Positions 13,170-63,946 of a stretch of 64,000 nt of DNA are shown here, in pieces. The position numbers and the translations under genes were made by a program. The DNA comes from Dictyostelium discoideum (taxonomy: Eukaryota). The notes beneath the pieces were generated by a model, which was not told the origin of the DNA, searched no databases, and was given only the letters and a program-made list of their open reading frames with translations. Location of the stretch: the NCBI GenBank assembly GCA_000004695.1, contig CM000151.3, positions 6,432,001-6,496,000 of the forward strand, read 5' to 3'. The stretch's first letter is position 1. The number at the start of each line of letters is the position of its first letter.

Positions 13170-13300
13170 AGGAATTTTTGGCTGGGCATTTTAAATATTG
13201 TTCCATTAAATAAAAAATTTAAATCTTTAATCCCAATCAATTTTATCTAAATTTAACAGCCAGGTCAAGATTTTAATGTTAAAAATAATAGCCATCCTAA
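13170..13300 (+). pseudogene. Decayed fragment of the NlpC/P60 gene 3' region: penultimate-exon remnant, intron, and start of last exon. Its intact counterpart is at 54635..56479.
   Basis: 13241-13275 'ttttatctaaatttaacagCCAGGTCAAGATT' matches the reverse complement of 54686-54720, which is the last-exon acceptor plus 'PGQD' of the NlpC/P60 gene. 13180-13215 resembles the 'GPGHVVMYIGNGN' exon more weakly. Confidence 0.45.
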
Positions 13301-13379
13301 TAAAAAAAAGAAACAAAACAAAAAAAAAAAAAAAAAAATATTTGATAAGGAAAATTATTACAAATCTAAATTTATTAAA

Positions 13380-13475
13380 TTTGTTGATCATTTTGTATTA
13401 CTTTTATTTTCAAATTATAAAGAAAGTTCGAGAAATTATTAATCGATAATATTGAAGATGAAAACAATTCCCAAT
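13380..13475. repeat. About 100-bp non-coding element shared in the same orientation with 54318..54420.
   Basis: tttgttgatcattttgtattacttttattttcaaat...gagaaattatta...gataatattgaagatgaaaacaattcccaa is about 85% identical to the 54318-54420 copy. Confidence 0.6.
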
Positions 13476-13627
13476 TTTAATTTAAACAATATATATATAT
13501 ATATATATGGTTAATTAATTTAGAAATTGGATTTACAAACTACTAATAATAAAATCCAATTTTTTTAATTTTTTTTAAAATAAAAAAACAAAAAGTTAAA
13601 AATTAATTTTTAATTTTAATAATTTAT

Positions 13628-14224
13628 TTAGTTTTTTAAAATGAAACCATTTTTTGGAGACTTTGAAATGAACCTATAAATTTGTTCCAATGATAAATGT
13701 TTAATATTTGAAGTATTTCCATTCAATATAAATACAAAGCCACCTGGTTCCAATTTTAGTAAACCTGGGTGCGAATATCCATTACCATTATAATATACTA
13801 TAGTATTGGTTTTAACTAGTCTCATTACTTCATTTCTAAAATTATTATTATTTCTATTTCTAAAATTATTATTATTATTATTATTATTTGGATTATTATT
13901 TGGATTATTATTTGGATTATTTGGATTATAATGGGTTAAATCTTTCATTTTTATTGAGGAACTATCTTTGATTTTATTTTTATTTTTATTCTTTTTATTT
14001 TTAATTTCTTTTTTAAAACAAAAGCAACCACAACAAAATATTAACTTTAGAATATTTCTAATGATTGGAAATTTAAAACATAAGACAATCACTATTACTA
14101 TAACTATAAGAGCTGTCAATAATAATGTAAATTTAGTTGCACAAATTTTTAGTTGTGTATAATAACAAACAACATTTAATCTATAATTATAAAAATAAGT
14201 AAAGGTTAGATAATTAGTTTTTAG

Positions 14225-14313
<89 letters not shown>

Positions 14314-18282: not shown

Positions 18283-20161
18283 TTAAAAAAGATCAGAAAT
18301 TAAATCTTTTGACGATGGTTTACAATTTTCAGGAATATCAAATGAAGCAATGATTTGTTTTGAAACTTTGGTAACTTCAAAACAAAGATCTTGAATTAAG
18401 AATGGGATTGATTGAGCAACATTTGGTGAGATTAAGTGATTTGAAACGAACCAACCTAAATCTTCTTCAATGGAGACAAGAGCGTCCAACATAATTAAAT
18501 GAGCTAATGGTTTAACGTTTTTAAGTTTTAATGTATTGATAGAGTTTTGGAAAACGATTTTAGTCATGTGAGCAAAACCTAATTTGACAGCCCATGGAAT
18601 TGCATTGTTAAAAGCGAAATAAGCAGGTTCTTTAGAGTTGCTAATGATTTGTTTTAATTCGGCCAAACGAATCTCTTCTCTAGTTTCAAATAATTGATTA
18701 ATATTTGAAAAATTGAATAATAACGATTTGGCATCTTCACCATCTAAATAGATACGATTGGTAGTGGTATTTGTTTGTTTTTGTTTTACACCTAATAAAT
18801 ACTTGGCCAATTGTTGCATGAGAACAGTATTATCACCTTCATATGTACAAACGATATCACAATCATTTTTAAATTCAGCTATACGATTTGCTGAACGGTA
18901 ACCTTGACCACCACAAGCTTCACGACAAGTTTGGAGTGCTGCAACACAGAACCAACTGTAAACTGCTTTGATACCTGAGCAATGGGCATGGATTGAAGCT
19001 GGTAATTTCTCTTGACATAATTCATTGGTTAAACGTTGAATGTAAAGATCAAACAAGATGGTTCTTGCCAATGGTGCCATAAGACGACGTTGTTGTGAAC
19101 TGAGAGTAATCAATGGAAGCTCATTATTTGCAGATGGACCAAACTGTTTTCTAATATGTGAGAATTCAATAGCAATAGAGAGGGAGGTTTTGGCAGCACC
19201 TGAACAACCTTTAGTGATTGCCATTCTACCAACAATGAATGGTGCCATTGTTGCAGCGAAATTCTTTATTGGTGTATTGAATTGACTCTTGTAAACACCG
19301 TCTTCGCTAACATCACTATATTTGTTTAAAAGGTTCTCTCTTGGGATACGAACTTGATCGAAACGAATTTGACCATTATCAATACCATTCAAACCTAACT
19401 TATGACCACAATCTTTAATGGTGATACCTTTCATGATTGCACCACTCTTTGGACAACGAAGTGGTACAACCAATGCATGAACACCATAATTTGTACCATC
19501 AATGATTAAGTTTGCGAAAACAGTAGTGTAGGTAGCATGAAGATAAGAACCACCAATCCAAAACTTTTCACTTGTTGGTGTTGGTGAATGAATGATAAAC
19601 TCTTTAGTTTGTTTATCGTAATGTGCAGTAGTTTCAATACCACGAACATTTGAACCATGACCAATCTCTGTCATTGCAAAGCAACCCATTGTCTTGAGGG
19701 TATTAGCATCTTCAATATATTTCTCATGTCTTGAGGTACCTAAAAACATGATTGTACCTCCAAATAATGTATAATGAACACCCAATTTGGTACAAACATT
19801 GTTATTATACAATGAAAACATTTCTACAACACCAGCATATCTGTGAAGGTTATTCTTAATATCAGTCAAATGAATTAATCCACTATTTGCAACAGCAACA
19901 CATTGTTCAAGTACTAATTGTCTATAGGTAGCCATATCCAATCCAATGAAATTCTCTTTGAATTTTGGATGATTTCTAATGAATTCTCTTGCTGCATCCT
20001 TATATTTACTTGCTTCAACTGAATCAATTAATAATTTTAATTCTCCAACATTTATATTTGCATCAATTGAATTAAATAATTCTTTTTCTAATACTTCATT
20101 TTTATTATTTGTTGTTTGACTATTAACATCTAAATGTTTTTTAATCTATATTATATATATG

Positions 20162-22071: not shown

Positions 22072-23950
22072 TTAAAAAAGATCAGAAATTAAATCCTTTG
22101 ATGATGGTTTACAATTTTCAGGAATATCAAATGAAGCGATAATTTGTTTTGAAACTTTAGTAACTTCAAAACAAAGATCTTGAATTAAGAATGGGATTGA
22201 TTGAGCAACATTTGGTGAGATTAAATGATTTGAAACGAACCAACCTAAATCTTCTTCAATGGAGACGAGAGCATCCAACATAATTAAATGAGTTAATGGT
22301 TTAACGTTTTTAAGTTTTAATGTATTGATAGAGTTTTGGAAAACGATTTTAGTCATGTGAGCAAAACCTAATTTGACAGCCCATGGAATTGCATTGTTAA
22401 AAGCGAAATAAGCAGATTCTTTAGAGTTGTCAATGATTTGTTTTAATTCGGCCAAACGCATCTCTTCTCTAGTTTCAAATAATTGATTTATATTCGAAAA
22501 ATTGAAAAATAACGATTTGGCATCTTCACCATCTAAATAGATACGATTGGTAGTGGTATTTGTTTGTTTTTGTTTTACACCTAATAAATACTTGGCCAAT
22601 TGTTGCATGAGAACAGTGTTATCACCTTCATATGTGCAAATGATATCACAATCATTTTTAAATTCAGCTATACGATTTGCTGAACGGTAACCCTGGCCAC
22701 CACAAGCTTCACGACAAGTTTGGAGTGCTGCAACACAGAACCAACTGTAAACTGCTTTGATACCAGAGCAGTGAGCATGGATTGAAGCTGGTAATTTCTC
22801 TTGACATAATTCATTGGTTAAACGTTGAATGTAAAGATCAAACAAGATGGTTCTTGCCAATGGTGCCATAAGACGACGTTGTTGAGAACTGAGAGTAATC
22901 AATGGAAGCTCTTTATTTGAAGATGGGCCAAATTGTTTTCTAATATGTGAGAATTCAATAGCAATAGAGAGGGAGGTTTTAGCAGCACCTGAACAACCTT
23001 TAGTGATTGCCATTCTACCAACGATGAATGGTGACATTGTTGCAGCGAAATTCTTTATTGGTGTATTGAATTGGCTCTTGTAAACACCATCTTCGCTAAC
23101 ATCACTATATTTGTTTAAAAGGTTCTCTCTTGGGATACGAACTTGATCGAAACGAATTTGACCATTATCAATACCATTCAAACCTAACTTATGACCACAA
23201 TCTTTAATGGTGATACCTTTCATGATTGCACCACTCTTTGGACAACGAAGTGGTACAATAAATGCATGAATACCATAGTTTGTACCATCAATGATTAAGT
23301 TTGCGAAAACTACAGCATAGGTAGCATGAAGATAAGCGCAACCAATCCAAAACTTTTCACTTGTTGGTGTTGGTGAATGAATGATAAACTCTTTAGTTTG
23401 TTTATCGTAATGTGCAGTAGTTTCAATACCACGAACATTTGAACCATGACCAATCTCTGTCATTGCAAAGCAACCCATTGTCTTGAGGGTATTAGCATCT
23501 TCAATATATTTCTCATGTCTTGAGGTACCTAAAAATATAATTGGACCTCCAAATAATGTATATTGAACACTCAATTTCGTTAAAATATTATTATTATACA
23601 ATGCAAACATTTCTAAAGCGCCTATATATCTGTGAAGGTTATTCTTAATATCAGTAAAATGAATTAATCCACGATTTGCAATTGCAGCACATTGCTCAAG
23701 TACTAATTGTCTATAGGTAGCCATATCCAATCCAATGAAATTCTCTTTGAATTTTGGATGATTTCTAATGAATTCTCTTGTTTCATCCTTATATTTACTT
23801 TCTTCAACTGAATCAATTAATAATTTTAATTCTCCAACATTAATATTTGTATCAATTGAATTAAATAATTCTTTTTCTAAAACTTCATCCTTATTATTTG
23901 TTGTTTGACTATTATTAACTTCTAAATGTTTTTTTATCTATATTATATAA

Positions 23951-44906: not shown

Positions 44907-47900
44907 TCATATGAATTGATCAAAAGATATAATATTTGGGAGAGATGATTCTGGAATACAATAGTAATTAGCTGTTGTTTTTCTTAGCTTGATCGTTGAG
45001 GTGAGAAGGATCTTAGGATCTTTGAAGTTATTATGGTCTTTTGCTGATAAGTTTTTCAGATCTTTTGCTTTTTTGATGTATTCTAGAGTGGCCAATTTGT
45101 GCCATTTCTTTAGAAGGGAGCTGTATGATAGTGATTCATTTGTTAAAGGATCTTCGCTGTATATTTGATTGCAAATCCAAATCCAAATGTTGTGGAGGAT
45201 AAGGGCCATTAGGTTTCTATATGCGAATGATCTGGTTAGATCATAGTCTATTGCTTTATAGTTCCATTCAAAGTATTCTTTGTGGAATCTGTGGTTGGCG
45301 TAATCTGCATTCACTTCTTGATCTTTTTTGGCTGTCGGTGATAATTTTGGAGTTATTCTATTAATGAAATTGTTATTTTGCCTAATTCTTGTATGGTGCC
45401 AGTTTTTACCTTTGCCTGTGGTAATATAGATGAAATTTTTGAGTTTATTTATTTTTATGAATTGTTTTGTTTTCTTGCATGAGAAGAACAGGTGACCGTA
45501 TGGGTCTTTGCTCATATCTTCTTTGCAGAGTGGGCATTGTTTGTTGTGAAGGTAGTTTATTGGAAGGCATCTGGCATGGAATCTAAACATTGTGTCTCTT
45601 GTTTTAGGGTCTTTTATCTTCAGTATGTTGTTGAAGAGTTGATTATAGCTGTAGCCTCTTAAGTTTAGAGATGATTGGAATTCCGTTTTAGGGATGGTTG
45701 GATTTTGGTCTTGAATTGTGGTATACCATTCTGCCAGTGAAAGTGGTTGTCCATTTTCGTTTTTTATGGATGTGAGATTATTGTTGAAGATTGCTTTTTT
45801 TATTCTTATTTTGTTCCATTCGTCTAAGTTTTCTTTTAGGTATCTGGATGTGAATTTGTTTTTTTGGATCTGATATTCCCAGCTTTTGTGATGAGATGAG
45901 TTTGTTTGTTTGGTTTCTAGTGCTAGGATGAACTGGTTTATGATCCAAAGTTTCTGCGCCAGTTGTCTCAATTCTATATTCCAAATGTTCCAGCCCCCTA
46001 CTTTTAGTGGGTATCTTGCTCTTTTGGTTCTCATTAAATTAATAACTTGAAATCCACTAGCATTTTTGTTGTTTGGTGCCGATAAAAACCATTCGACTAA
46101 TTTATTGATTTGGTTTAATTCCTCTTCCTTAAAGTTCTCTACATATGAATAGTAGGTTAATTTAGAGAGTGCGAATGCTTTGAGGATGTTGGTTTTGGTT
46201 TTGATTGTTGAGTCAGTGGTTTTCCATAGTACTAAGGATGATCTTATTGTGTTTAATATTTCTGGCATTTTTCTTGTTATCCCTTTGCCTGTGAAGAAGT
46301 ATCCCAAGTATCTTTCTGGATTTGTAGATATTGGAATTCTTTGGTTGGTATTGTCTGGGTTGCCTATAAGAATTGATGAAGATTTGTCGATGTTTAGTTT
46401 TGAGGAAGTGGCTTTGCAAAATGAATTGAAGTGTTGTAGTACTAATTCAAGTTGTTGAGAGTCTGGGACCATTGAAGCCGAGTCGTCTGCAAAGCTTTGG
46501 AATTTCTCTCTGTGGTTGCTGTTGTTTAGAGGAAGGCCAGTAATTCGGTCATCTTGTAAAATTTTTCTAGCTAAAGCCTCTATTACAAGGACGAACAGGG
46601 TGGGTGATAGTGGATCTCCTTGTTTAACTCCTCTTTTGATCTCAAAGGGTATAGTAGTTCTACCATTAATTTCAATTCTTGCTTCAGATTTGGTGAGTAG
46701 ATTCATTATCAGGTTGATTATATTGGTTGGAATGTTGATGTGTTGTAGTGATCTGAGTATTGAACCGTGTGAGATCGAGTCAAAAGCTTTTTCGAAATCA
46801 TATAGTGTAATTATTCCGTTAATTCTTTTATCATTACAATAGTTGATTAATTCGTTCATTGATATGATATTATCTATAATGAATCTGCCTGGTACGAAAC
46901 CTTTTTGATTGTGGTTGATCACTTTCGTTAGTATTGGGATTATTCTATTGTTTATTAGTTTTGAGTGGATTTTATATATACAGTTAGCCAGTGTAATTGG
47001 TCTTCTGTTTTTGATTAGTTCGGGGTCTCCCTTTTTAGGTATCGTGATAATGAGGCCTTCTTTGTAATTTTTGCTAATTAGATGAGGATTTCTTAGAGTG
47101 TCGTTGAATGCTGAGGCCAGTATTGGAGCTAGTTTTTCTTTGTGTGTTATGTAGAATAAGTTTGGAATTCCATCTGGGCCTGGAGATTTGTGTGGGTTCA
47201 ATTGTTTTATTACTTCTAGGATCTCTTGTGATGTGAATTCATTTTCAAGGTTGTCCCATGTTGAGTCCCTGGTCACTGTCCAATTTTCCAACATTTCATA
47301 ATGAGATGGTGGGTCATCTTCTTTGTAGTCATAAAGATTTGAGTAATATTTTACGTATTCTTCTTCGATCAATTCCTGTTTGTTGATTGTTCTACCTTGT
47401 GCATCTTTTACTGCGTTGATGGTGAAATCATTGTGTCTTTTCTTGATTCTCGCGGAGATGTACTTGAGTGAGGTTTCTTCGCAATAGTTGTTCAATTCTT
47501 GTTTAAGTTGTTCTTCTCTTTTTTTAGATTCATTTATTGCTGAAAGGGTTGCGAAGGCTTGGTCTTTAAATTCTGTCTCTAGTAGGGAGATTAGATTTTT
47601 GATGTTTGCCTTATTGTTGTAGTCATTTTGTTTTTGAAATTCTGTGTATAGTTGTTTTATTTTGTTTAGTAAGCTGTTGAGTTGAGAGAAGGAAATAGAG
47701 TTATGGTTGGATGACAGCTCCCTTGAATAATCGTTAAGTAGGAAGTCTATTTTCTTAAGCATTATGCTTGAGAGGATTGAGGATTTTTTTAATCTCCATC
47801 TGCGCTTGTTCATCTGTATGTTGGGTAGAGTGAAGGTGGTTGATAGGAAGTTGTGATCTGATAGAGGTATGTCATTAATTTTTGGGGGGATTAGGTTCCT

Positions 47901-48611
47901 TAAGTATAATTGGCTGTAGTTGATTATGCTATTGTTAAGGTATATTCTGTCTAGTCTCCTTTCCAAGATTCTTGTGAGGTTATTGTTTGTGTTGTGTATC
48001 GTTCTTGAGAAGGTGGGTCTTTTATTTAGTTGGTCCATATCCATTAGGTTATTTGAAATTCTGATGGCTTCGATTACTGTGGCCATCTCATCTGGGGATT
48101 GTGTTGTCAAGTTGCCTTGGTCATCATTTGATGTGTGATTGTCATTGAAGTCTAAACAATTGAAGTCGCCTGCTATGATGTCGATGTTTTTTTTAGGGTT
48201 AGACGTTAGGTTGTGGTATTGGTTGTTGAAGTGTTTGTTTAGTGTTGAAGCTAGTGTTTTTCTTTTATCAGGTTGGGCCGGGGCGTATATGGCCAAGATT
48301 CTCGTTGTGGTATCTTTTATTAGAATGTCTGATATTATTAGTCTACCTTCTATTATGAATATTGGTGAGAGTTTTATGTTTTGGTTGTTGTGGTTTAGTA
48401 TTCCTATTCCGTTGCCTCTGTTGGTTGCGCTAATGATGGAGCCAGGAAATAGCTGGTGTGCTTGTGTTGCGTCGGCGTTGAGTTCATTGACTATGGTTAG
48501 TGCCAATGAGTTTGGGGGGGATTGGGATTTGATAAAGTCTGTTTTGTTTTTGAAGGAGGTGTCAGTGCCCCAACCTCTGACATTCCATTGGTTGATTTTG
48601 ATTACTACCAT
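44907..48611 (-). CDS. Retrotransposon ORF2: apurinic-like endonuclease + reverse transcriptase + C-terminal CCHC zinc knuckle (1234 aa).
   Basis: Real ATG at 48611. The N-terminal EEP fold 'LAIYAPAQ...GDFNCLDF...SDHNF'. RT motifs 'PGPDGIPN', 'FEKAFDSISH', 'QGDPLSPTLF', 'SFADDSA' (YXDD box). C-terminal 'CPLCKEDMSKDPYGHLFFSCK'. Confidence 0.85.
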   Translation of the reverse strand: MVVIKINQWNVRGWGTDTSFKNKTDFIKSQSPPNSLALTIVNELNADATQAHQLFPGSIISATNRGNGIGILNHNNQNIKLSPIFIIEGRLIISDILIKDTTTRILAIYAPAQPDKRKTLASTLNKHFNNQYHNLTSNPKKNIDIIAGDFNCLDFNDNHTSNDDQGNLTTQSPDEMATVIEAIRISNNLMDMDQLNKRPTFSRTIHNTNNNLTRILERRLDRIYLNNSIINYSQLYLRNLIPPKINDIPLSDHNFLSTTFTLPNIQMNKRRWRLKKSSILSSIMLKKIDFLLNDYSRELSSNHNSISFSQLNSLLNKIKQLYTEFQKQNDYNNKANIKNLISLLETEFKDQAFATLSAINESKKREEQLKQELNNYCEETSLKYISARIKKRHNDFTINAVKDAQGRTINKQELIEEEYVKYYSNLYDYKEDDPPSHYEMLENWTVTRDSTWDNLENEFTSQEILEVIKQLNPHKSPGPDGIPNLFYITHKEKLAPILASAFNDTLRNPHLISKNYKEGLIITIPKKGDPELIKNRRPITLANCIYKIHSKLINNRIIPILTKVINHNQKGFVPGRFIIDNIISMNELINYCNDKRINGIITLYDFEKAFDSISHGSILRSLQHINIPTNIINLIMNLLTKSEARIEINGRTTIPFEIKRGVKQGDPLSPTLFVLVIEALARKILQDDRITGLPLNNSNHREKFQSFADDSASMVPDSQQLELVLQHFNSFCKATSSKLNIDKSSSILIGNPDNTNQRIPISTNPERYLGYFFTGKGITRKMPEILNTIRSSLVLWKTTDSTIKTKTNILKAFALSKLTYYSYVENFKEEELNQINKLVEWFLSAPNNKNASGFQVINLMRTKRARYPLKVGGWNIWNIELRQLAQKLWIINQFILALETKQTNSSHHKSWEYQIQKNKFTSRYLKENLDEWNKIRIKKAIFNNNLTSIKNENGQPLSLAEWYTTIQDQNPTIPKTEFQSSLNLRGYSYNQLFNNILKIKDPKTRDTMFRFHARCLPINYLHNKQCPLCKEDMSKDPYGHLFFSCKKTKQFIKINKLKNFIYITTGKGKNWHHTRIRQNNNFINRITPKLSPTAKKDQEVNADYANHRFHKEYFEWNYKAIDYDLTRSFAYRNLMALILHNIWIWICNQIYSEDPLTNESLSYSSLLKKWHKLATLEYIKKAKDLKNLSAKDHNNFKDPKILLTSTIKLRKTTANYYCIPESSLPNIISFDQFI

Positions 48612-49864
48612 TATGAGATGATATCGATCTCCTCTTGGGAGTCGTATAGCTGCGGTTTGGATGGTGAAGGGTAGATACTCTCTATGAAGCTCTCAATGAT
48701 TCCTTTCCTTTCTTTTTTGACAGGTGTCTTAGGGGTGGATGGGATGTAAGGGTTGCTTCTGTTTATTGTTGGTGAGAGTTGGGTGACCTCGTTGTTTGAG
48801 TGGATTTCCTCGTTCTTGCGTTTATGTGATGGAGGGATGTTTGGTGTCTTCTCTCTGTTTTCCGAGGATGAATGGATGTTAGTGCTCGTTTTGTTGGCAT
48901 TGTCTTTTTGGATGGCGTTGGATGTTGTGGTAGTGGTTGTGGTGGGTTTGACAGATTGAGATTCTGCTTGGTTTTTGGGGGGAAGAGGTTGAGAGGACTT
49001 TTTTGATTGGGCTTTTTTCTCTTGGGTTGATTGTTTATCAGACTGATTGTTTGCTGGGTCATTTGTTTGTTGTTGTGGTTTTGGTTGAGAGGATTTGATT
49101 GCTATCCTGTTTTGGGTGTTGGGAGGATCATCTGTCATCTCATCTTCTAATGGTTCTTCCGTGTTGTTTAACTCTACTTTCTTATTTTTCTTTTGTGAGG
49201 AGTAGGTTTTGGTGGCCGTTCTGATGGTAAAGTTGGCGATTTCTGTATTGTGTTGGCCAGATTTCATTTGATCGCCTATTTTGCATTCTATTAGACCGAA
49301 TACTAGGAGGTGGTCGGTGGAGTATATAGTATGGTATATTGCATAGGGTATTTCTTCTGCAAAGGCAGTTTTGATGAGGGCGTCCACTATTCCTGCCTTT
49401 TCTCTTGGAATTCTTACTCTTCCTGTGAGGACGTGGTAGTCTCTACTGGAGGTGATGAAGGTTCCCAATTTGCTTCTATCTCTAATGATATTTAGGAGAG
49501 ATTGTTCGTTTTTAATCATCAGGTGTATCATTTTTCTAGTTCCTTTGCCTATGTATATCTTGTCGATTGGGATATCGTAGTTTGAGAGTGTTTTTCTCAT
49601 TTCTTCTAACCCCATGAGATCCATTTTGGGGAATTCGAGTGTAATTGGGTAGAATCCGTTGTTTTTCTCGTAGGTTGAGAGCGCAGTCATGTTCAATATG
49701 GTCTCGCAGTATTTGGAGATGTCTTTGAGGCCTATTGATAATTTGGGATAGGTCTCCTTTATCTCTGCTGTTTTTGTGGAGAATTCCTTAATGAAGTTCT
49801 CTGATGCCTCGTCCATATGGGTGGAGGGGTTGGCCATTTTAGCCGCGTCTGCGTAGGAATTCAT
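48611..49864 (-). CDS. Retrotransposon ORF1 (417 aa, basic Gag-like; Pro/Thr/Gln-rich C-terminal half).
   Basis: Real ATG at 49864. The stop overlaps the ORF2 start. Confidence 0.7.
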   Translation of the reverse strand: MNSYADAAKMANPSTHMDEASENFIKEFSTKTAEIKETYPKLSIGLKDISKYCETILNMTALSTYEKNNGFYPITLEFPKMDLMGLEEMRKTLSNYDIPIDKIYIGKGTRKMIHLMIKNEQSLLNIIRDRSKLGTFITSSRDYHVLTGRVRIPREKAGIVDALIKTAFAEEIPYAIYHTIYSTDHLLVFGLIECKIGDQMKSGQHNTEIANFTIRTATKTYSSQKKNKKVELNNTEEPLEDEMTDDPPNTQNRIAIKSSQPKPQQQTNDPANNQSDKQSTQEKKAQSKKSSQPLPPKNQAESQSVKPTTTTTTTSNAIQKDNANKTSTNIHSSSENREKTPNIPPSHKRKNEEIHSNNEVTQLSPTINRSNPYIPSTPKTPVKKERKGIIESFIESIYPSPSKPQLYDSQEEIDIIS

Positions 49865-52403: not shown

Positions 52404-52868
52404 ATGTCAAACTTTCAAAATCAAGAAATTAATATTGGTTCGGTTGTACTTGGTGATAGATCATTAAGTAATGGTCAATATGGTGATAAAAAGAGTATTC
52501 GTCATGTTGATTTTGATGTACCATTTTCAGGTATTCCAAAAGTTTCTTTAGGAATTAATTTCTTGGATGCATCATCTTCAGAACAAATTCGTATTCGTTG
52601 TATTGCTCAAAATATAACATCAAAAGGTATGGACATTTCATTCACAACATGGAATGATAATACTGTCTATGATGTAGCAGTTGATTATGTTGCTATTTAT
52701 AATCCAAAATTTGGAAATTCAAATAATAAAAATAATAATGATAATAATATTAGTAATACAAATACAAACCAACAAAGAAATCAATATAATGATAATGAAA
52801 ATAATAATTATCAACAACAAAGCCAACAAAGTTATTATGAAAATACAAATAATAATAACAATAATAAA

Positions 52869-52926
<58 letters not shown>

Positions 52927-53465
52927 GTGAAGATAAACAACAACAACATCAACAACAAGGAAGATATCAAGAAAATAACAATTATAATAGAAATGATAAT
53001 GATAATGATTATCAATCTCAATCTCAATCTCAATCTCAATCTCAATCTCAATCTCAATCTCAATCACAATTACAATCAAATAATTTTAATGGTAAAAATG
53101 TAAATATTAGATCAAATAAATTTAATAATTATATTAGAGATAATAATGGTAAAGGTGATATGTCACAAACTGCAAGAAATAATGAAACATGGATAATAAC
53201 ATCTGCCAATAATAATGGAGATTTATTTTTTATTCATAATAGATATAATCATTATCTTTCAAGTAATGGTGATAGAGTATTGGTTGGTGAAAAGAATGAT
53301 TCTTCAATTTGGAAGATTTCACAACGTAGACAAGGTGTTTACTCAATTCAAAACTATAAAAATTCAAATTATCTAAGTTCAACTGATAGAAATGAATTAA
53401 AAACAAATGTTAAAGTTGTAAATTCTTGGGAAGAATTTAATTTTAATTTTGTTCAAGATTCTTGA
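52404..53465 (+). CDS. H-type lectin domain protein with a central Asn/Gln-rich low-complexity region, a (QS)n repeat, and a C-terminal beta-trefoil-like region (353 aa, single exon).
   Basis: Real ATG at 52404. The N-terminal 'HVDFDVPFSGIPKVSLGINFLDASSSEQIRIRCIAQNITSKGMDISFTTWNDNTVYDVAVDYVAI' fits the H-type (discoidin-II C-terminal / Helix-agglutinin) lectin pattern. The (CAATCT)9 hexanucleotide repeat at 53018-53071 encodes QSQSQS. Confidence 0.55.
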
Positions 53466-53525: not shown

Positions 53526-54061
53526 CATTCAATATTAAAATATCAACAATAACAACAACACATCCATTCATTTTCAACAATTAAAGTATCTCTTTTGTTT
53601 TAAAAAATAAATAAATAAATAAATAAAAAAAATCTAAAAAAGTTGGTTTATTATTTCTTTTCTGTTGAATTTTCTGATTTATATTTTAAGAATTTTTTTT
53701 TTTTTTTTTTGGACTTTCCAAAATATTTTAAAAAAAATTAAATATTTAAATTCCAAAATTAAATCATAAATGATTTTATTATTAAGGTTAATTTAAATAG
53801 AGTTTAAAACTTTTTTTTCAAACCATACTTACCTGTCATTATCAATATGTGATCATAAAGGAATATTTGATTTCAAACATTTCAGACCATTGCACTTTTA
53901 GGTTTGTTTTTTTTATGATCTTCCAAAAATAGGATACAAGTGACAATTTATGATAGTCGTGGATGTTGCGCTTGCGCACTCCCACAACACACCCTATTTA
54001 ATTTTAAAGAAAAATAATAATAATAATAATAATAATAATAATTATAATTATATCACTAATA

Positions 54062-54250
54062 ATTAAAATAATAATAATTTTAGAATCAAGTAATGAGACT
54101 AGTTAAAACCAATACTATAGTATATATATCATAATGGTAATGGATATTGGCACCCAGGTTTACTAAAATTAGAACCAGGTGGCTTTGTATTGAATGGAAA
54201 TATTTCAAATATTAAACATTTATCATTAGAACAAATTTATAGGTTCATTT
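54062..54250 (+). pseudogene. Decayed fragment of the HAP2-like gene 3' end (cytoplasmic tail through the stop and about 60 bp of 3' flank). It is inverted relative to the intact gene at 13628..14180.
   Basis: 'aataattttagaatcaagtaatgagactagttaaaacc...ggtaatggatattggcacccaggtttactaaaattagaaccaggtggctttgtattgaatggaaat...ttatcattagaacaaatttataggttcatttcaaactaa' is about 88% identical to the reverse complement of 13628-13830. It carries a frameshifting insertion, a 6-bp deletion, and a 30-bp terminal deletion. Homology may extend to about 53935 ('ggatgttgcgcttgcgc' ~ 'tgttgtggttgcttttg'). Confidence 0.6.
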
Positions 54251-54317
54251 CAAACTAAATAAATTAAAATTAAAAATTTTTTTGTTAACTTTTTGTTTTA
54301 TTATTTTGATATATTGA

Positions 54318-54420
54318 AAATTTGTTAATCATTTTGTATTATTTTTATTTTCAAATAATTAATAAAATTTGAGAAATTATTATATTATGATAATATTGAA
54401 GATGAAAAAACAATTCCCAA
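54318..54420. repeat. Second copy of the roughly 100-bp shared element (see 13380..13475), in direct orientation.
   Basis: tttgttaatcattttgtattatttttattttcaaat...gagaaattatta...gataatattgaagatgaaaaaacaattcccaa. Confidence 0.6.
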
Positions 54421-54482
54421 ATATTTATACGGTGGAATAAATTTAAAAATTAGATTATAAATAATAAATATTTATTATTTGA

Positions 54483-54513
<31 letters not shown>

Positions 54514-54634
54514 ATATTTGGTTTTAAACCATTTTTTATTTTTAGTTTTGAAATAATTTTTTCTTTATCGAATATTTAATATAAATATTTTTTTTTTTTT
54601 TTTGTTTCTTTTTTTAATAGGATGGCTATTATTT

Positions 54635-56217
54635 TTAACAATAGGTACGACAACCAACATAATCTTCAGTGTAAGCTGGAATGACATGACAATCTTGACC
54701 TGGCTGTTAAATTTAGATAAAAAAGGTTAATAAAGATTTAAAATTTTTAAAATTTCTTTTTGATGATGAAACTAAATAATTAAAATACATACTTGAGGAC
54801 ATTCAGCAACATTTCCATTTCCAATATACATTACAACGTGACCTGGGCCTGGAGCTTCACCTGGGAAGGTATAAAAGAAGAGAGCTTTAAAAGTTGGATT
54901 AAAAAGTAATTTATTTATTAATTAGATTTCATTTTTGAATTTTATCCTTTTTTTTTTTAAAAAATATAAAAAAAAAAAAAAAAAAAAAAATACTTACCAC
55001 CAATTTGACAGGCACCAGTGTTGGCTGGACCGCAATCACCTTGTGAATCTAAATTTTCAACAACAGTGCTACCACTTCCAGATGATGAACCGCTACCACT
55101 TCCAGATGATGAACCGCTACCACTTGAGCTACCACTTGAGCTACCACTACCACTTGAGCTACCGCTACCACTTGAGCTACCGCTACCACTTGAGCTACCA
55201 CTTGAGCTACCACTTGAGCCACCACTGGAGCTACCTGAGCTACCTGATGATGAACCACTTCCGGAAGCTAAAATAAAAAAGGAGTTAATTAAAATTATTT
55301 CAAATGAAAAAGAAAAAAAAAAAAAATTTTGTTCTAATATTTACATGAACCACTGCTACTTCCACTTGAACTACCTGATGATGAACCAGCTATTTATTTT
55401 ATTTAAAATTTAAATTAGTTAGTTTTAAAATCCATATAAAATATTAAAAGATAAAAGAAATACGTTACATGAACTACCTGATGATGATCCAGCTTTTTTT
55501 TTGGAAAAAAAAAAAAAAAAAAAAAAAATTAATTTGAATGTTAAATTTATAAGAAAACGAAAAAAAAAAAAAAAAAAAAGAAATACATACATGAACTACC
55601 AGATGATGAACCACTACCAGATGAAGTACCTGAACTGTTTGGTCCACTACCACATGGTTGACCTAAAATAATAATTTAAATAAATGTAAATAATCCAGAA
55701 ATAAAAAAAAAAAAAATTTCGAAAACTAAAATATTATTTTATAATTACCTTGAGTGAATTGTTGAGAAGCAGTTCTTAAAATACCACTCCAACCAGCTTG
55801 AATATATGATGTTGAGGTAAGACCGGAACAATCCTTAAAAAAAAAAAAAAAAAAAAAGTTAATACCAAGTAAAATTATATTACTGCAAATCAGTTTTTTT
55901 TTTTTTTATGTAAAATACATACCATACCACCAGATCCACCACAACCACATTGTGTACCCTAAATAATAGAAAAATCCATTAGTTTATAAAATTAAATATT
56001 AAATAATTGAATTAAATGATACAAACACCCCAAACATATGGACCTAAATTATTTTTAAAAAAAAAAAAAAAAAATTAAACAATATTAGTTACTTGTTTTG
56101 GAAAAAAAAAAAAAAAAAAAAAAAACTTTAATTAAAATTGGCAATTATCAACCTACAACCACATGATGCATAATTTGAAGCAATGGAACTGTTTTTAAGA
56201 AAAATGGTTAATGTTAA

Positions 56218-56256
<39 letters not shown>

Positions 56257-56479
56257 ATTTTGATAATTACGCTGCTTGAGTGCAAATTTGTGAAGATACT
56301 TAAAGAAAAAAATAAAAAATGATTAATAAATTAATTTTTTTTTTTATTTGAAAAATTACATTTAACTTGTACATACATGGAGTCCAAGAAGTTACATTAT
56401 AGGCTGATTCAAAACCTAATGAGTTGACCAAAGCTGCATTAACAGCTGCAAATGAAAGAATTAATTTTAAAAATCTCAT
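54635..56479 (-). CDS. Secreted NlpC/P60-family cysteine peptidase/amidase with a Ser/Gly-rich linker. At least 10 short exons, with several micro-exons of 29-90 nt.
   Basis: ATG at 56479, signal peptide MRFLKLILSFAAVNAALVN. Exons joined by GTATGT/GTAATT/GTAAGT donors, at approximately 56479-56389, 56298-56270, 56190-56155, 55990-55955, 55840-55756, 55668-55597, then 55480-55340 Ser/Gly exons, 55276-54991, 54890-54786, 54704-54635. Catalytic motifs 'DCSGLTSTSYIQAGW' (Cys), 'GPGHVVMYIGNGNVAECP' (His), and a downstream His. The linker is encoded by an 18-bp (agctaccacttgagct) tandem repeat at 55040-55270. Confidence 0.65.
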
Positions 56480-57495: not shown

Positions 57496-57496
<1 letters not shown>

Positions 57497-60400
57497 TATT
57501 TTAATTTAAAACTTACAATATGATCATTTGGTAAATCAATGAATCTTGGTAAATAAGATGGTAAAGTATGCAATGATATTAAATTTTGGGTTGAAGGTGG
57601 ATTGATAGTACCTCTTTTTGAAAATTCATCACTATTGACTAAATCAACGATTGAAGGTAAACCTAATTTCTTAATCAACTCTTTTACATTTGAGAATGAT
57701 TCAATTGATAAACCACTAAATGTATTGATAGTATCTTGATTTGAAGGATTTGTAGATTTATGATTAACTAATAAATAACAATAATGATGGAATAAATAAG
57801 CTTTTCTAATGAATGGAGTTAGAATTGTTTCAATGGTTTCAATTTCACCTTCATTTGATAAAGAGTAATTTTCATGAACTGGATTTGAAATTCTTGAGCT
57901 AATAATATCACTTGCTAAATGAATGTATGATTTATAAATATATGGATATGGATTGACATCACGATTTAAGAAATGACTCATTGCACAAATTATAAATGGG
58001 TCAATATTGTGAAATCTCTTTTGTTGATCTAAAGAATAGAAATCGAAATATTTATAATTAAATTGAATATCTGTTAATTTCATAACATTATTATATAACA
58101 ATGTTAAAGTTTCTAATTGACGTTGAAATTCAGATTTTGAATAAATATAATAACCATTATTATTATTATTATTATTATTACCAATACCATTTAGACCATC
58201 TAAATTATTAATACCACTATTTGTATAATTATAATTCTTTCTTGAAGTAATTTCTAAAATTTCAATATTTGATAAAATAAATTTCAAGAAATAAATAGCA
58301 TTTGATGGATTTAATTGCTTTGGTGGATATTGATAACTCCAATCAGAGTTTACAAATGAAAAGAATAAATTTGAAACCAATGCTGTATTTTCAGGGTGAG
58401 CAACAAGATCAGAGTGATTAATAGGTTTAACTATTAATGCAATATTAGAGGCACGATTACATAATGGACATTTAAAGTGATCATTTACATAGTATGGTGC
58501 ATAAACTGATAAACAACTTCTATGTATATAATGACCACAAGTTTGAACACGAGTTTTATTTGAAAATTGCATCAACTCTATATTTAAATCTATATCTAAA
58601 TCATCTATATCATATTTATTATATTCTTCATAGGTTTCAATATTCATTGGTAAATCAACATGTTTTTTATTCTCTTCAATTACTTCTTCTCCATTGTGTT
58701 GTTGTTGCTGTTGCTGTTGTTGTTGTTGTTGTTGTTGCTCTGGTTTTGAACTTCTTAAAAATGCTTGATAATTTGTAAACTTTTTAATTGAGGAATGTTC
58801 AATTAAACCAATTGAACAAATTGGATCAGTTATATTATTTGAATTATTTTTACAAACTACACAAACTAAATCTTTTTCTTCACCACTATGAATATGTTCA
58901 TTTGTAGTTGTTGATGAACCATTAAAATCTTCATCATCATCATCATTTAAAAGTTCATTAGATTGTAAGAATTGTAATTGTTGCATTCTCATTTTTCTTT
59001 TAATTTCTTCTTGTCTTTCTTGAGCGATTTTCTTTCTAATATTTGCATCAATTTCACTTTGTTGTGATAATAATGATGCCATATCTAATTTCTTTTCCTT
59101 TAATAACTTTTCAATATTATTATCATATTCATATAACATTGTAAATAATTTGTTAATTAAATTCTTTTTATCTGAAAATACATTATTCTTTTCAATATTT
59201 AATGATAATTCTATTATTAAATTTAATAAATTTGTTTCAGCAATATTTTGATTATTATTATGATTATTATTTTGATTATTATTATTATTTTCTTTAATAT
59301 TAAAATCTAATTTCTCTTCATTTTCTTCAATATTTTTAATAATTTCAATTGGTTTAAATAAAAGTAACATTGGATTATCACCATCAGCAGATTTGATATT
59401 ATCATTGAATAAAGATTTTTCAATTTTTTCATTTGCAATTGACATATTAATTAATTTTGAAAATTGTTGTTTTAATTGTTGATCAGTCAAAGAGATTGAA
59501 GATTCTAAAAATGTTCTAACTGATAAAACTATAATGTATAAGGTATGATTGAGTAATGGATCATAATATTGATTAAAATCATTTGAATCAACTTTAATTT
59601 TACCGGCAGATAACATTAAACTAAGGAAATTTGAAATATAAAAATCCATATCTCTTTCATCATTATTTTGAACATTATTATTTGAATTTGAAATTAAATT
59701 ATAATTTGGATATAAAAATTTTAATAAAATTGAATTTAAAATTGTAAATAAAATTGGTTCATTTAATAATTTTTCAACATTTTTTAAATTTTCAGGTAAA
59801 GGATCAGTTTTTGAAGGTAATGGATAAGATTCTGGTATTGGGTGATTATTTTGTTTTAAGTAATCATAATAGTTTGCCAATGATTTATAGGTGAAAGAAT
59901 TTGGATCGAAATAATGATATGGATAATAAACATCGAAACGATCCCAATACTCTGGTTTCAAAATTAACTTTCCATCTGGTTTTGGTTGATGACTAACTTG
60001 TTTAATTATATCTTCAACATTGAATAATGTAAATTCTTTACGTTGATCTAAAAGTTTTGAAAAGTTATTGGTATTAAAAGTTAAGGCTTGAATTATATGA
60101 TATCTTGCTTCTTGAATACCATATTTTGCTTGTTTTCTATGTTGAATGATAACAATGATATACTTTAGGAATTGGGATAACATTGTTGGATTATCAGTAT
60201 CCATATTATAGTTACCTGAAAAGTTATTCAATGCTAACAATATGAAATGTCTAGTACCCAATAGCATTGAACAATATTGTACCAATGTTAAATCGATTGA
60301 AAACAAAGACCAAATATAATACGAGGTGAAATCACTAATATTTAAATTTCTTTCCCATAGACGACATTGATGTTGACCCACTAGAATAGCGGGTAACATT

Positions 60401-61693
60401 GATTTGGTTGCCAAAAATAAAACAGTCTCCAATGGTATCTTTGATTTTATTGTATCAAATGAATACTGAGGTGAGTCATAAACTGAATTCAATAAATAAA
60501 TTCCAATTAATCTATTGGTTGGTAAATGTAATGGTACAGCGACTTCACCACTTAATATATTTGCCTTTGGTAATAAAGTACCACTAAACATTCTATGAAG
60601 AGCAGTGTCTGGGTTTTGATGTCTATCAATTGACAATTGTAAATGGCTCAAAAGGATGTCTAAATACTTTAAACTTGAAAAACCTTGTTTATGTAAACTA
60701 TGAAAGAATGTATCAAATGCCATAAATGATTGACATTCAATTGAAACCACATTTGAAATCACTGGTAGCTCGTATTCAATTGCTTTTTGAGTCTCTCTTT
60801 TGATTGGACATAACAATTGAATTTCATCAGTGATTGCCAATAGAGAATTTACAACGGTATCAGAGTTGTTATCAATATATTCACAATTTTTGTCGTGTCT
60901 AAAAATATTGGAGATATAATTATAATCTTGATTACAATAAAACTCTTGATCATAGTTCTTTCTCTGTGTGGCATTGTATAGATCATATTTATTCTTTGTT
61001 TGAACCAATGAAAGTTTAGTTTTAATTAAAATTGATAAAAGGTTTTGTTTTGAATAACCAGTTGAAAATGGTACAGCGATTGAGGGTAATTCAAACATTT
61101 GACATGAAATGGCCGATACCAATGATCTAACTTGAGAATTTGAAGACAATGCCAACTTTGGATAATTGGTTAAAAACTCCTCACAAAAGATAAACTTAAA
61201 GTATCTATTACCAATTATTGTTATAATCAATGGTCTAAATATCATCAACACTCTTGGTTCGCCATGGATCAATGAAATGATTGATCCCACTGCATTGTTT
61301 TCCCTCTTTAATTGATCCACATTCTCATAAGAGAGTACTTCAGAGTATGGTAATTTCACTGGTGAATATAAATCAAAACTATTTGGATCCAATATACGTT
61401 GACTAAACTCCTCAGAGATTATATACAATAGTGGATATGATTTTCTTGCTAATCTATCAATAAACTTGAATAAATTAAATGATTGACTGAGTACTAATTT
61501 CTTTGTAAACTTTTTAATATTTTTCTTAAATATTGGTGTATCCATATTCAATTTTGTATTTGATGAAATTGGTTTAGTAATATCATTAAATATATGAAAA
61601 TTTTTACTAAATACTTCATTAAATAATTCAGTTTCATCACCACAATCTGATTCATCAGCTTCTTCGTTTTGTATCATTTCTTCATCTGAATTA

Positions 61694-61791
<98 letters not shown>

Positions 61792-62160
61792 TGGATTATT
61801 ATTATTATTTTGTTGTTGTTGTTGTATATTATTGTGGAAATCACGCATTATCTGGTTAAAACCATTATTATTAATTAAACCTCTAAGTGCATTAAATCGA
61901 TCGATATGTTCATCTGAATCAGAATCGGAATCAGAATCGGAATCAGAATCAGAATCATACATTAAATTTCTTAAATCTACATTATTGCCAGCATCTTCAT
62001 CCATTTCTTCGAGTGAACTATCTTGAATCATTTCACTATCACTATTTTCTTTATTGGTATTACTATAATCACTACTATAGTTAACGTCTTCTTCCTCTTC
62101 TTCTTCATTATAATGATTATTTCTGTTTTGGTTGTCGAAAAAGTTGATGTATCTGCCAAT

Positions 62161-62253
<93 letters not shown>

Positions 62254-62256
62254 ATT

Positions 62257-62322
<66 letters not shown>

Positions 62323-62505
62323 AAATCTAGGTCCTAATCCATTATTTATAATTGCTTCATTGTTAATATTGTTAATAAAACGATGGAAATACTGAATAAT
62401 ATTATTGTCTACCAAAAGGTTTCCAAATCCTAAGTTGCCTTCTTCTGGCTGTTGTTGCTGTTGCTCTTGTGGTTGTTCTTGAGGTGGTTGTTGCTGTTGT
62501 GGTAG

Positions 62506-62546
<41 letters not shown>

Positions 62547-62776
62547 GCTCTTGTGGTGGTTGTAGTTGTGGTTGCTCTTGTGGTAGTTGTTGTAGTGGAT
62601 GCTGCATTTGTTGTTGGCCTTGTAAAACGTTTCCAACTAAATTATTATTACCCATATCTAATACCCTATCAATAAAATTAATTTGACGAAGTTCAGCTAT
62701 TTCTTGTAGATCTATTCCTGGGAATACAAACTGTTGTTGTTGTTGCTGAAGTATCTGTGGTATCTGTTCTTGCTGC

Positions 62777-62872
<96 letters not shown>

Positions 62873-63946
62873 CGATGATGTTGAACTCTAGTTCTACGAT
62901 TTTGAAAATCTAAAGCATCTAATCTCTTTTTTTTCTTTAATATTTCATCTCTAATAAAATCAGCGAATAATAATTCCAATCCATTAAAAGAAGAGAAAGT
63001 ATCTTTTGGGTTATCAAATCTTAATGAATCCAATGTTCTTAATAAATGGACCACCAATATTCTAATGGTAATATGAAAGTTTTTTTTAGTAGTTTCATTC
63101 AATTTATCGGATGGATGTTCTGGTGAATTTTGATCCCTATGCTTTGTACAAAACCCTGATGGTTTAAATGAATCTGGATTACCACAATCACAACAACCAC
63201 CAAGCCCACTCTCCTCAATCATAAATGCATGACCTTCCTTTATATGAATACTATTCTCCATACATGATATGCAAATACATGATGTTTCAGTTTGTGCACA
63301 ATCTTTACACCTAAAAAACCATGTTTTTTTTGTCCATTCTATTATATATAAAAAAAAAAAAAAAAAATAATAAAACAATTAATAATTTTAATAAATATTA
63401 ATAAATATTAATAAAAATATAATATAAAAATACATTACCAAATTGACAAAATGGAAATTTATGAATACTAGTTTCTTTAATTATTGATTCTGTATCACGA
63501 TTATTTAATTTTTCAAAGATAAAGTTGAAGAGTGGTTGTGAGAAAGTGAGTGTTGGATAAGATAGTGTCATTGAATTTAAAAATGTTAAATAAGGTTGTG
63601 CATCAAATTTTTCATCTTCAATTGGGTAAAGATTAATGTTGTTTTTTTTTAATAACGCTTCAAATAAATAATAATGTTCTTTTGAATTTGATGATTCATC
63701 ATCTGAGCTATCTTCATCAACATTGAGTTTAACTGTAGTTCTTTTTGCTTGATAATTGTTATTTTCCATAATATCATCATCTTCATCCCCATCTTCTTCG
63801 TCACCATCTTCTTCTTCCTCTTCTTCTTCATTATCTTCATCTTGGTCTTCATCATTTTCATCTTCTTCATATTCATCTTCTTCATACTCATCCTCTTCAT
63901 CCTCTTCAATATTTTCATTATCATAATTTAGAATGTAATTCAACAT
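57496..63946 (-). CDS. UBR-box N-recognin-type E3 ubiquitin ligase (about 2116 aa). Two exons: 63946..63439, 63338..57496.
   Basis: Real ATG at 63946. Donor GTAATG at 63438; acceptor ataatag at 63339; 100-nt intron; phase 1 is consistent. UBR box 'CKDCAQTETSCICISCMENSIHIKEGHAFMIEESGLGGCCDCGNPDSFKPSGFCTKH'. C-terminal RING-like 'CGHYIHRSCLSVYAPYYVNDHFKCPLCN'. Long poly-Gln/Asn tracts; (GAATCN)n encodes (DS)n at 61915-61960. Confidence 0.8.

Follow-up and report, generated by a model that had tools for sequence, protein, structure and literature searches.

Chromosome 2 of Dictyostelium discoideum AX4 carries a gene of the NlpC/P60 peptidase family whose short coding sequence is divided among a dozen exons and interrupted by a long Ser/Gly-rich linker. 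It lies in a stretch of 64,000 nucleotides (nt) taken from contig CM000151.3 (positions 6,432,001 to 6,496,000), which we call the window and to which all positions below refer. The best overall explanation of the locus, and in our judgement a likely one, is an intact secretory-pathway NlpC/P60 gene that encodes a probable peptidoglycan endopeptidase. The gene, which seems to be unannotated, adds a new member to a known enzyme family; its architecture is unusual but can be explained. Work on how phagocytes kill and digest bacteria uses Dictyostelium as its standard amoeba model; an intact peptidoglycan endopeptidase that is apparently absent from protein databases would extend the known antibacterial set.

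Gene structure

The gene is read on the minus strand from an ATG at 56479 to the end of a stop codon at 54635, exactly the interval assigned to it by an earlier note on this DNA. Splicing of 12 exons in silico yields an in-frame open reading frame (ORF) of 873 nt that encodes 290 amino acids. Exons measure 17-270 nt, half of them 45 nt or less (17, 24, 28, 32, 36, and 45 nt), and all 11 introns (68-113 nt) are bounded by GT and AG, which bears out the structure of many micro-exons described in that note. Base composition separates the two classes sharply, with 32-50% GC in exons (0.43 overall) vs 10-15% in introns (0.12 overall). The features of the gene are as follows.

54635..56479, minus strand: whole coding region of the NlpC/P60 gene, 12 exons and 11 introns, TAA ending at 54635
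56377..56479, minus strand: exon 1 (103 nt), residues 1-35, signal-peptide-like N-terminus of MRFLK and hydrophobic LILSFAAVNAALV, with the conserved NVT sequon
56271..56298, minus strand: exon 2 (28-nt micro-exon), LSSQICTQAA, holding the invariant Cys40
56157..56188, minus strand: exon 3 (32 nt), SIASNYASCG(C)
56027..56043, minus strand: exon 4 (17-nt micro-exon), (C)PYVWG, boundaries and phases as in paralogue P0006
55923..55958, minus strand: exon 5 (36 nt), GTQCGCGGSGGM, a Cys-rich insert typical of the eukaryotic clade
55749..55833, minus strand: exon 6 (85 nt), DCSGLTSTSY...FTQ(G), with the catalytic Cys74 codon TGT at 55830-55828
55591..55662, minus strand: exon 7 (72 nt), Cys104, then Ser/Gly linker, coding from 55651
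55469..55492, minus strand: exon 8 (24-nt micro-exon, phase 1-1), SGSSSGSS
55345..55389, minus strand: exon 9 (45 nt, phase 1-1), Ser/Gly linker
54998..55267, minus strand: exon 10 (270 nt), bulk of the linker, as far as 55068, followed by TVVENLDSQGDCGPANTGACQIG, which includes the conserved Cys226 and Cys234
54793..54884, minus strand: exon 11 (92 nt), ALFFYTFPGEAPGPGHVVMYIGNGNVAECPQ, with His253 (CAC, 54840-54838) and Glu265 (GAA, 54804-54802)
54635..54703, minus strand: exon 12 (66 nt and stop), PGQDCHVIPAYTEDYVGCRTYC, with three conserved Cys

The peptides SCGC, GTQCGCGG, and DCSGL, singled out in the earlier note, are all found in the micro-exon translations, and its His-bearing exon and Cys-rich final exon are recognizable as exons 11 and 12. 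Retention of any of the introns introduces an in-frame stop, and codon use is mostly GGT, TCA, CCA, CAA, and TGT. In alignment, the product is colinear with 10 homologues, with insertions and deletions confined to the linker, and the invariant positions within residues 1-104 are numbered identically in the protein of Tieghemostelium lacteum. The exon joins outside the linker are thereby supported, since a wrong join would have given an insertion or deletion in the alignment. The 17-nt exon recurs, as GTCCATA(T/C)GTTTGGGGT and with unchanged junction phases, in the annotated paralogue P0006 of D. cf. discoideum, which falls in one 90% cluster with AX4 XP_629164; the T. lacteum gene has an 8-nt micro-exon at nearly the same place. 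That the gene is intact and that it belongs to the NlpC/P60 family are, taken together, close to certain. We dismissed the plus-strand ORFs that cross the repeat, such as 55018-55413 ("LPLELPLPLE..."), as artefacts of reading the Ser/Gly repeat in antisense.

Family membership, catalytic residues, and fold

Profile searches identify the product as an NlpC/P60 peptidase. Pfam PF00877 (NLPC_P60), the hidden Markov model check set by the earlier note, matches the full-length protein at 35 bits (E 1.5e-8) and the protein without its linker at 40.7 bits (E 2.5e-10), above the gathering score of 23. The best homologue has an E value of 6e-47; together with the Pfam score this goes far past what chance would give, and NCBIfam returns weak matches of the RipA/RipB/RipC type. 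The top sequence matches in the PDB are NlpC/P60 proteins or domains (3h41, SagA 6b8c, and 8er5), and RipA, LytE, and dipeptidyl-peptidase VI are also found.

PYVWGG (residues 56-61) precedes DCSG (residues 73-76), so the Y-x-W-G-G and D-C-S-G motifs are both intact. Cys74, within DCSG, does not vary across 11 sequences and falls on the DCSG of 3h41, 6b8c, and 8er5; His253 is invariant among the aligned homologues, and position 265 is E, Q, or D. Together, the profile matches, DCSG, and the invariant His support the family named in the earlier note. Residues 249-280 align without gaps to RipA 428-459, which pairs His253 with H432 and Glu265 with E444; Glu265 also aligns with the IHSP His of 3h41. 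Because of this alignment to the RipA catalytic residues C383, H432, and E444, which we took from the PDB titles of RipA mutant structures, the triad read from the alignment is Cys74-His253-Glu265, of the RipA-like Cys-His-Glu type. The Cys-His-His triad expected in the earlier note does not hold, and His274, in the last exon, varies among homologues.

The AlphaFold2 model of the 59%-identical T. lacteum protein (P0002) has a core with predicted local distance difference test (pLDDT) values of 70-90, a predicted template modelling (pTM) score of 0.53, and a stretch of pLDDT below 50 at residues 106-198; the Cys-rich insert (residues 61-72) is modelled at low confidence. Foldseek searches with this model align both lobes across the loop, with a template modelling (TM) score of about 0.7 relative to compact targets. 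The structures matched include peptidoglycan endopeptidases and other hydrolases of the bacterial cell wall (7cfl, 3h41, 4hpe, 8er5, RipA, LytE, MepS, and SagA), characterized autolysins among them, along with NlpC proteins of Trichomonas vaginalis, and full-domain structural alignments to solved enzymes have 14-17% identity. The model is suggestive of a papain-like alpha+beta fold for the D. discoideum protein, whose family is C40 in clan CA of MEROPS.

Cysteines and secretory features

At the N-terminus, MRFLK forms a basic stretch and is followed by a hydrophobic core of 13 residues (mean Kyte-Doolittle value 2.3), with small residues at -3/-1 near S20/G22 as judged by eye. A hydrophobic N-terminus is present in all full-length homologues, and almost all carry an NxT sequon ahead of the domain. 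The signal peptide proposed in the earlier note therefore has a recognizable counterpart, again judged by eye, and a secretory-pathway protein is a well-grounded inference from these features. The mature protein has 13 Cys, comprising the catalytic one and 12 that are invariant or nearly invariant. Two further Cys found in most homologues, in FYCF and CP.HV, are both missing from this protein, which fits the loss of a disulfide as a pair. The protein belongs to a eukaryotic clade rich in disulfides, with members in every dictyostelid group sampled.

The Ser/Gly linker

The linker comprises residues 105-214, which are 73 Ser, 34 Gly, 1 Pro, 1 Asn, and 1 Thr (110 residues). Its coding sequence takes in the end of exon 7, all of exons 8 and 9, and 200 nt at the start of exon 10. 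The earlier note had described a (GSS)n linker encoded by tandem 18-mers. Such a linker is present, coded by four exons and not by one, and the 18-bp unit is found in 4.1 copies, joined by a 24-bp unit that the description had omitted. Tandem Repeats Finder delimits the following repeats, along with looser periods of 12 and 30 bp.

55068..55247, minus strand: tandem-repeat DNA coding for the linker
55068..55125, minus strand: 24-bp unit, 2.4 copies, 100% match
55129..55202, minus strand: 18-bp unit, 4.1 copies, 96% match
55228..55247, minus strand: 9-bp unit

The linker does not separate domains: it sits within the catalytic domain, between Cys104 and Cys226, where it joins the Cys lobe to the His lobe. 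In homologues without the linker, the equivalents of these two residues open a short C-x2-C-x7-C loop, as its first two Cys, and this loop bridges the helical lobe that bears the Cys and the beta lobe that bears the His.

The position of the linker is shared by two other dictyostelids. T. lacteum P0002 has a Ser/Gly/Thr loop of similar kind at the same point. In D. purpureum, the public model (P0004, DICPUDRAFT_25810) is N-terminally partial and skips a 413-nt "intron" (4324-4736) at the linker; the DNA of this interval is in-frame Ser/Gly coding with two real introns. Our re-modelled D. purpureum orthologue (GL870947, L001 3854-5064) has 7 exons and 259 amino acids, and regains a signal peptide, a linker of about 85 residues, and a conserved Cys that is missing from the public model. 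The shared loop position in T. lacteum and D. purpureum implies a linker-bearing lineage beside a linker-less paralogous lineage. On the strength of the structure model, the loop is predicted to be intrinsically disordered while conserved in position, and its length would change by slippage or unequal exchange of the 18-24-bp repeats.

Intron number and the origin of the linker introns

A typical D. discoideum gene has one to two introns, and 11 introns in a coding sequence of 873 nt lie far above this norm. Within the family, 2 introns are found in each of Cavenderia fasciculata, the D. purpureum paralogue, and T. lacteum, 4 in the AX4-type paralogue, 6 in the D. purpureum orthologue, and 11 in the D. 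discoideum linker gene. Intron 1 occupies the same codon and phase in D. purpureum, and introns 3 and 4 are common to the linker gene and its paralogue; none of the remaining introns is matched in both position and phase among the five family members mapped.

The repeated exon-intron junctions of the linker hint at a way in which introns multiply. The junction ..GGTAGTTCAT|gta.. is found three times, introns 7 and 8 are identical over their first ~16 nt, and exon 8 with the 5' end of the next intron nearly repeats the exon 7/intron 7 junction. This pattern points to tandem duplication of an exon-intron unit as the source of the linker introns, although the introns are too AT-rich for proof. 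We also considered an introner-like or transposon-like origin and rejected it: a short-query blastn search of the gene against the window gave, other than the match to the fragment at 13.2 kb described below, only matches to A/T runs.

Relatives and comparison with known systems

The AX4 paralogue (XP_629164.1/EAL60750.1) and its orthologues in D. firmibasis, D. citrinum, and D. dimigraforme belong to the same Cys-rich clade. They share with the linker gene the signal peptide, the NxT sequon, the SCGCPYVWGGTSCGCGGSGGMDCSG motif, the HV..Y.G..(E/Q)CP...C tail, and the 17-nt PYVWG micro-exon with identical junction phases. They differ in sequence (42-46% identity), in the absence of a Ser/Gly linker, in intron number (4 vs 11), in genomic locus, with other neighbour genes, and in keeping the FYCF and CP.HV cysteines. 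The orthologues from T. lacteum (DLAC_01431, P0002, 266 amino acids) and D. purpureum (DICPUDRAFT_25810 as re-modelled, 259 amino acids) are closer, at 59-61% identity, and carry the Ser/Gly-rich loop at the same point, between the Cys104 and Cys226 equivalents; they differ in having 2 and 6 introns, respectively, and other repeat units. In D. discoideum and D. purpureum alike, a convergent gene for an H-type lectin is found downstream.

Beyond the dictyostelids, the peptidoglycan D,L-endopeptidases RipA and RipB of Mycobacterium tuberculosis have the NlpC/P60 fold, a Cys-His-Glu triad, and identical His-to-Glu spacing; they differ in being bacterial, in lacking disulfide-rich inserts and an intradomain linker, and in overall identity (~15%). 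The NlpC/P60 hydrolases of T. vaginalis (PDB 6biq, 6bim, and 8ev4) are structural matches, at ranks 13-16 and 21, from a bacterivorous or bacteria-associated eukaryote (PMC6299479, PMC10461829). They form a separate clade with bacterial-type SH3b domains, without the Cys-rich signature or the Ser/Gly loop, and their activity has been shown by experiment, whereas that of the D. discoideum linker gene is predicted. CP7 (cprG) offers a likeness within the same organism, being a clan CA cysteine peptidase with a Ser-rich low-complexity domain; it belongs to papain family C1 and not to C40, and the likeness of the linkers is one of analogy and not of sequence comparison. CP4 and CP5 are further Dictyostelium lysosomal cysteine proteinases with serine-rich domains.

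A profile built from the dictyostelid proteins retrieves 22,752 relatives. The ~13 closest (E <= 1e-30) are mainly dictyostelid and environmental proteins with the same Cys-rich signature, and the next are bacterial-looking multi-domain NlpC/P60 proteins; horizontal acquisition from bacteria is a plausible possibility. Among the environmental sequences, contigs of about 1 kb (JGI/Logan; P0032-P0038, P0047, and P0050) encode the Cys-rich NlpC/P60 domain preceded by a conserved N-terminal region of ~190 residues, for which there is no Pfam match; P0010, also environmental, has a WSC domain in its place. These proteins are probably eukaryotic.

Predicted function

The host is D. discoideum AX4, a bacterivorous amoeba as the earlier note had supposed. 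We infer that the gene is expressed and that its enzyme would enter the secretory route or the phagosome, where it would cut peptidoglycan stem peptides, as a D,L-endopeptidase, in ingested or nearby bacteria. Catalysis would proceed through a RipA-like Cys74-His253-Glu265 triad, with the two lobes joined by the 110-residue Ser/Gly loop. A role as a peptidoglycan hydrolase against prey bacteria is likely by analogy with the nearest relatives and with characterized eukaryotic precedents (PMC6299479, PMC10461829, PMC12332128), and it is these on which the peptidoglycan substrate is proposed. In T. vaginalis, NlpC/P60 enzymes gained by lateral transfer are used against bacteria (PMC6299479, PMC10461829), and Aspergillus fumigatus secretes CwhA (PMC12332128).

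The linker would probably be heavily O-modified, with N-acetylglucosamine-1-phosphate (GlcNAc-1-P) or O-glycans, by analogy with the lysosomal cysteine proteinases of Dictyostelium. Among these, CP7 (cprG) has a serine-rich domain bearing GlcNAc-1-P on serine (the AD7.5 epitope), according to Ord et al. 1997 and Mehta et al. 1996 as cited in PMC4920372. A function of the loop as a glycosylation platform is, on this analogy, a tentative suggestion. More doubtful still is the fuller proposal that the protein is an overlooked antibacterial effector, whose conserved loop of ~85-110 Ser/Gly residues serves as a phosphoglycosylation or O-glycosylation platform that directs the enzyme to, or stabilizes it in, bacteria-containing phagosomes. 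If it were true, the loop would be convergent with the Ser-rich inserts of the papain-type lysosomal proteinases of Dictyostelium, and the three same-phase repeat introns would be a clean case in which introns and micro-exons multiplied through tandem duplication of an exon-intron unit.

Alternative explanations

Several observations weigh against the reading of the locus as an intact gene for a peptidoglycan endopeptidase. The support for its fold comes from a 59%-identical relative and not from the D. discoideum protein itself; substrate specificity is unreadable from sequence, and some NlpC/P60 members cut other amide or ester bonds. The papers retrieved on bacterial killing by Dictyostelium, which cover lysozymes, BadA-family proteins, BpiC, and a phospholipase D, do not mention an NlpC/P60 enzyme. 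More broadly, the literature surveyed makes no link between NlpC/P60 and Dictyostelium biology, the C. fasciculata protein figuring only as a leaf in a tree (PMC5586350). The exact 290-residue product and its variants without exon 8 or without exons 8 and 9 are absent from a collection of 15 billion proteins that includes spliced Dictyostelium transcript contigs, and the homologue search returned no fragment of the product, transcript-derived ones included. Exact-match searches with several neighbouring ORFs likewise led to no entry for the gene. Low or conditional expression could account for this, as could transcript assemblies broken by the repeats. Finally, the joins of exons 8 and 9 lie in the linker, beyond the reach of homology checks, and any combination of introns 7-9 preserves the frame.

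The missing records could mean that the locus is an unexpressed or decaying copy, whether a pseudogene or an annotation orphan. Neither AX4 nor seven further annotated genomes of the D. discoideum complex yielded a protein for the linker gene, yet the linker-less paralogue, known in AX4 as an "NLP/P60 domain-containing protein" (XP_629164.1, 176 amino acids), belongs to a cluster that spans all 8 of these genomes; a dead fragment of the linker gene also exists at 13.2 kb. Decay is nevertheless hard to reconcile with 12 exons free of frameshifts and stops, 11 canonical splice pairs, exon and intron GC contents of 43% and 12%, and a full set of catalytic residues and 12 conserved Cys, with the one Cys pair lost jointly and not at random. 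The D. purpureum and T. lacteum orthologues, moreover, share the linker position. Absence from the protein index is weak evidence because the index also missed a neighbouring UBR gene: the word-index gave nothing for the C-terminus of that UBR-type E3 gene (57496-63378), the AX4 protein included. Micro-exons of 17-45 nt and a repeat-rich exon are just what predictors typically miss, as when the D. purpureum linker was mis-called as an intron, and the locus is an annotation warning in that a 17-nt exon, five more exons of 45 nt or less, and a repeat-coded linker defeat predictors. The linker gene is probably unannotated as a protein, a conclusion we hold loosely, and its being a dead copy seems to us very improbable.

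The two remaining alternatives accept a living gene and concern its product. A secreted enzyme with another substrate (a gamma-glutamyl or isopeptide bond, poly-gamma-glutamate, or a component of the matrix or spore coat), or a mainly structural protein, would be compatible with a family and fold that leave specificity unfixed at 14-17% identity to solved enzymes, and with the extra Cys-rich inserts of the clade (residues 61-72), which are modelled at low confidence. A Cys-rich and Ser/Gly-rich composition is also typical of Dictyostelium matrix proteins. Set against this, the named close matches in sequence and structure (such as Acd24020, RipA, LytE, SagA, and MepS) are peptidoglycan endopeptidases or autolysins, the triad and the DCSG and YxWGG motifs are intact, Dictyostelium eats bacteria, and the other characterized eukaryotic NlpC/P60 enzymes act on peptidoglycan (PMC6299479, PMC10461829, PMC12332128). 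We consider a non-peptidoglycan or structural role unlikely. Somewhat less unlikely, though still a minority prospect, is a mature mRNA with a different linker, in which exons 8 and/or 9 are skipped or alternative and shorter-loop isoforms result. Introns 7, 8, and 9 are all phase 1 with near-identical flanks (..GGTAGTTCAT|gta..ag|CTGG..), so exons 8 (24 nt) and 9 (45 nt), both multiples of three, could drop out without a break in frame, and homology places no constraint on joins within the linker. Yet both exons code for Ser/Gly, have consensus splice sites, and stand at GC 0.42-0.44 amid introns of 11-13% GC, features not expected to persist in exons that were never included.

The 13.2-kb fragment and the surrounding window

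The window is extremely AT-rich and holds a dead relic of the NlpC/P60 gene some 40 kb from the gene itself.

13211..13913, plus strand: dead NlpC/P60 gene fragment, inverted duplicate of 54012-54749 (from sequence comparison)

A 32-nt exact match (54691-54722 = 13272-13241) lies within an inverted segmental duplication of ~0.7 kb that pairs 54012-54749 with 13913-13211. The copy retains 46 nt of intron 11 and, after them, 13 nt from the start of exon 12; the next 47 nt are deleted, and the stop region and 3'-untranslated-region-like and downstream sequence follow. A sub-segment of ~100 nt is flipped. No other exon of the gene was found at the site by tblastn, and a second degenerate copy upstream of the fragment, also sought by tblastn, was discarded as a candidate. 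The earlier note's claim that this gene donated a pseudo-fragment at 13.2 kb is correct for the 3' end, the fragment being a by-product of a small segmental duplication. With its two copies inverted and 40 kb apart, the duplication may mark the breakpoint of an inversion.

Both copies of the duplication contain terminal-exon-like open frames (54126-54260, plus strand, and ~13660-13800, minus strand); one ends in ...HNGNGYWHPGLLKLEPGGFVLNGNISNIKHLSLEQIYRFISN*, the other is a variant that continues beyond that stop, and neither has a Pfam match. The copy at 13.2-13.9 kb lies directly 3' of an ORF for the gamete-fusion factor HAP2/GCS1 (14221-15348, minus strand; PF10699, E 1.7e-76). At the copy near the NlpC gene, the duplicated segment starts 26 nt after a full-length match to U1 small nuclear RNA (53825-53986, plus strand; RF00003, 60.1 bits, E 1.4e-13, model 1-166/166), which begins "atacttacctg", lies ~650 nt past the NlpC stop codon, and falls below the Rfam gathering score of 69.5. 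It is the sole RNA-family match between 53.0 and 57.6 kb, an interval in which no tRNA was found.

The gene is flanked by two protein-coding neighbours, and within 10 kb there is no single-exon gene that could anchor the locus in an exact-protein search. The H-type lectin domain protein (52404-53465, plus strand; PF09458, E 1e-20), convergent to the NlpC gene, has long Asn/Gln/Ser-Gln low-complexity tracts, and its simple ORF has no exact database entry. The large UBR-box/RING E3 ligase gene (57496-63946, minus strand; PF02207, E 1.7e-14, with weak RING and PRT6_C matches) contains long poly-Q and poly-N tracts. Two ORFs of the window exactly match AX4 proteins: one is DDB_G0276059, and the other, from the group IV decarboxylase Q75JL7, is its last exon. 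Two long ORFs of 417 and 1234 amino acids that overlap by one base (44907-49864, minus strand), in a block of 33-41% GC that is strongly skewed in both GC and AT, resemble the ORF1-ORF2 pair of a non-long-terminal-repeat retroelement and may belong to one. Two further minus-strand ORFs of equal length (18283-19941 and 22072-23730; 552 amino acids each), 3.8 kb apart, are probably a tandem gene duplicate.

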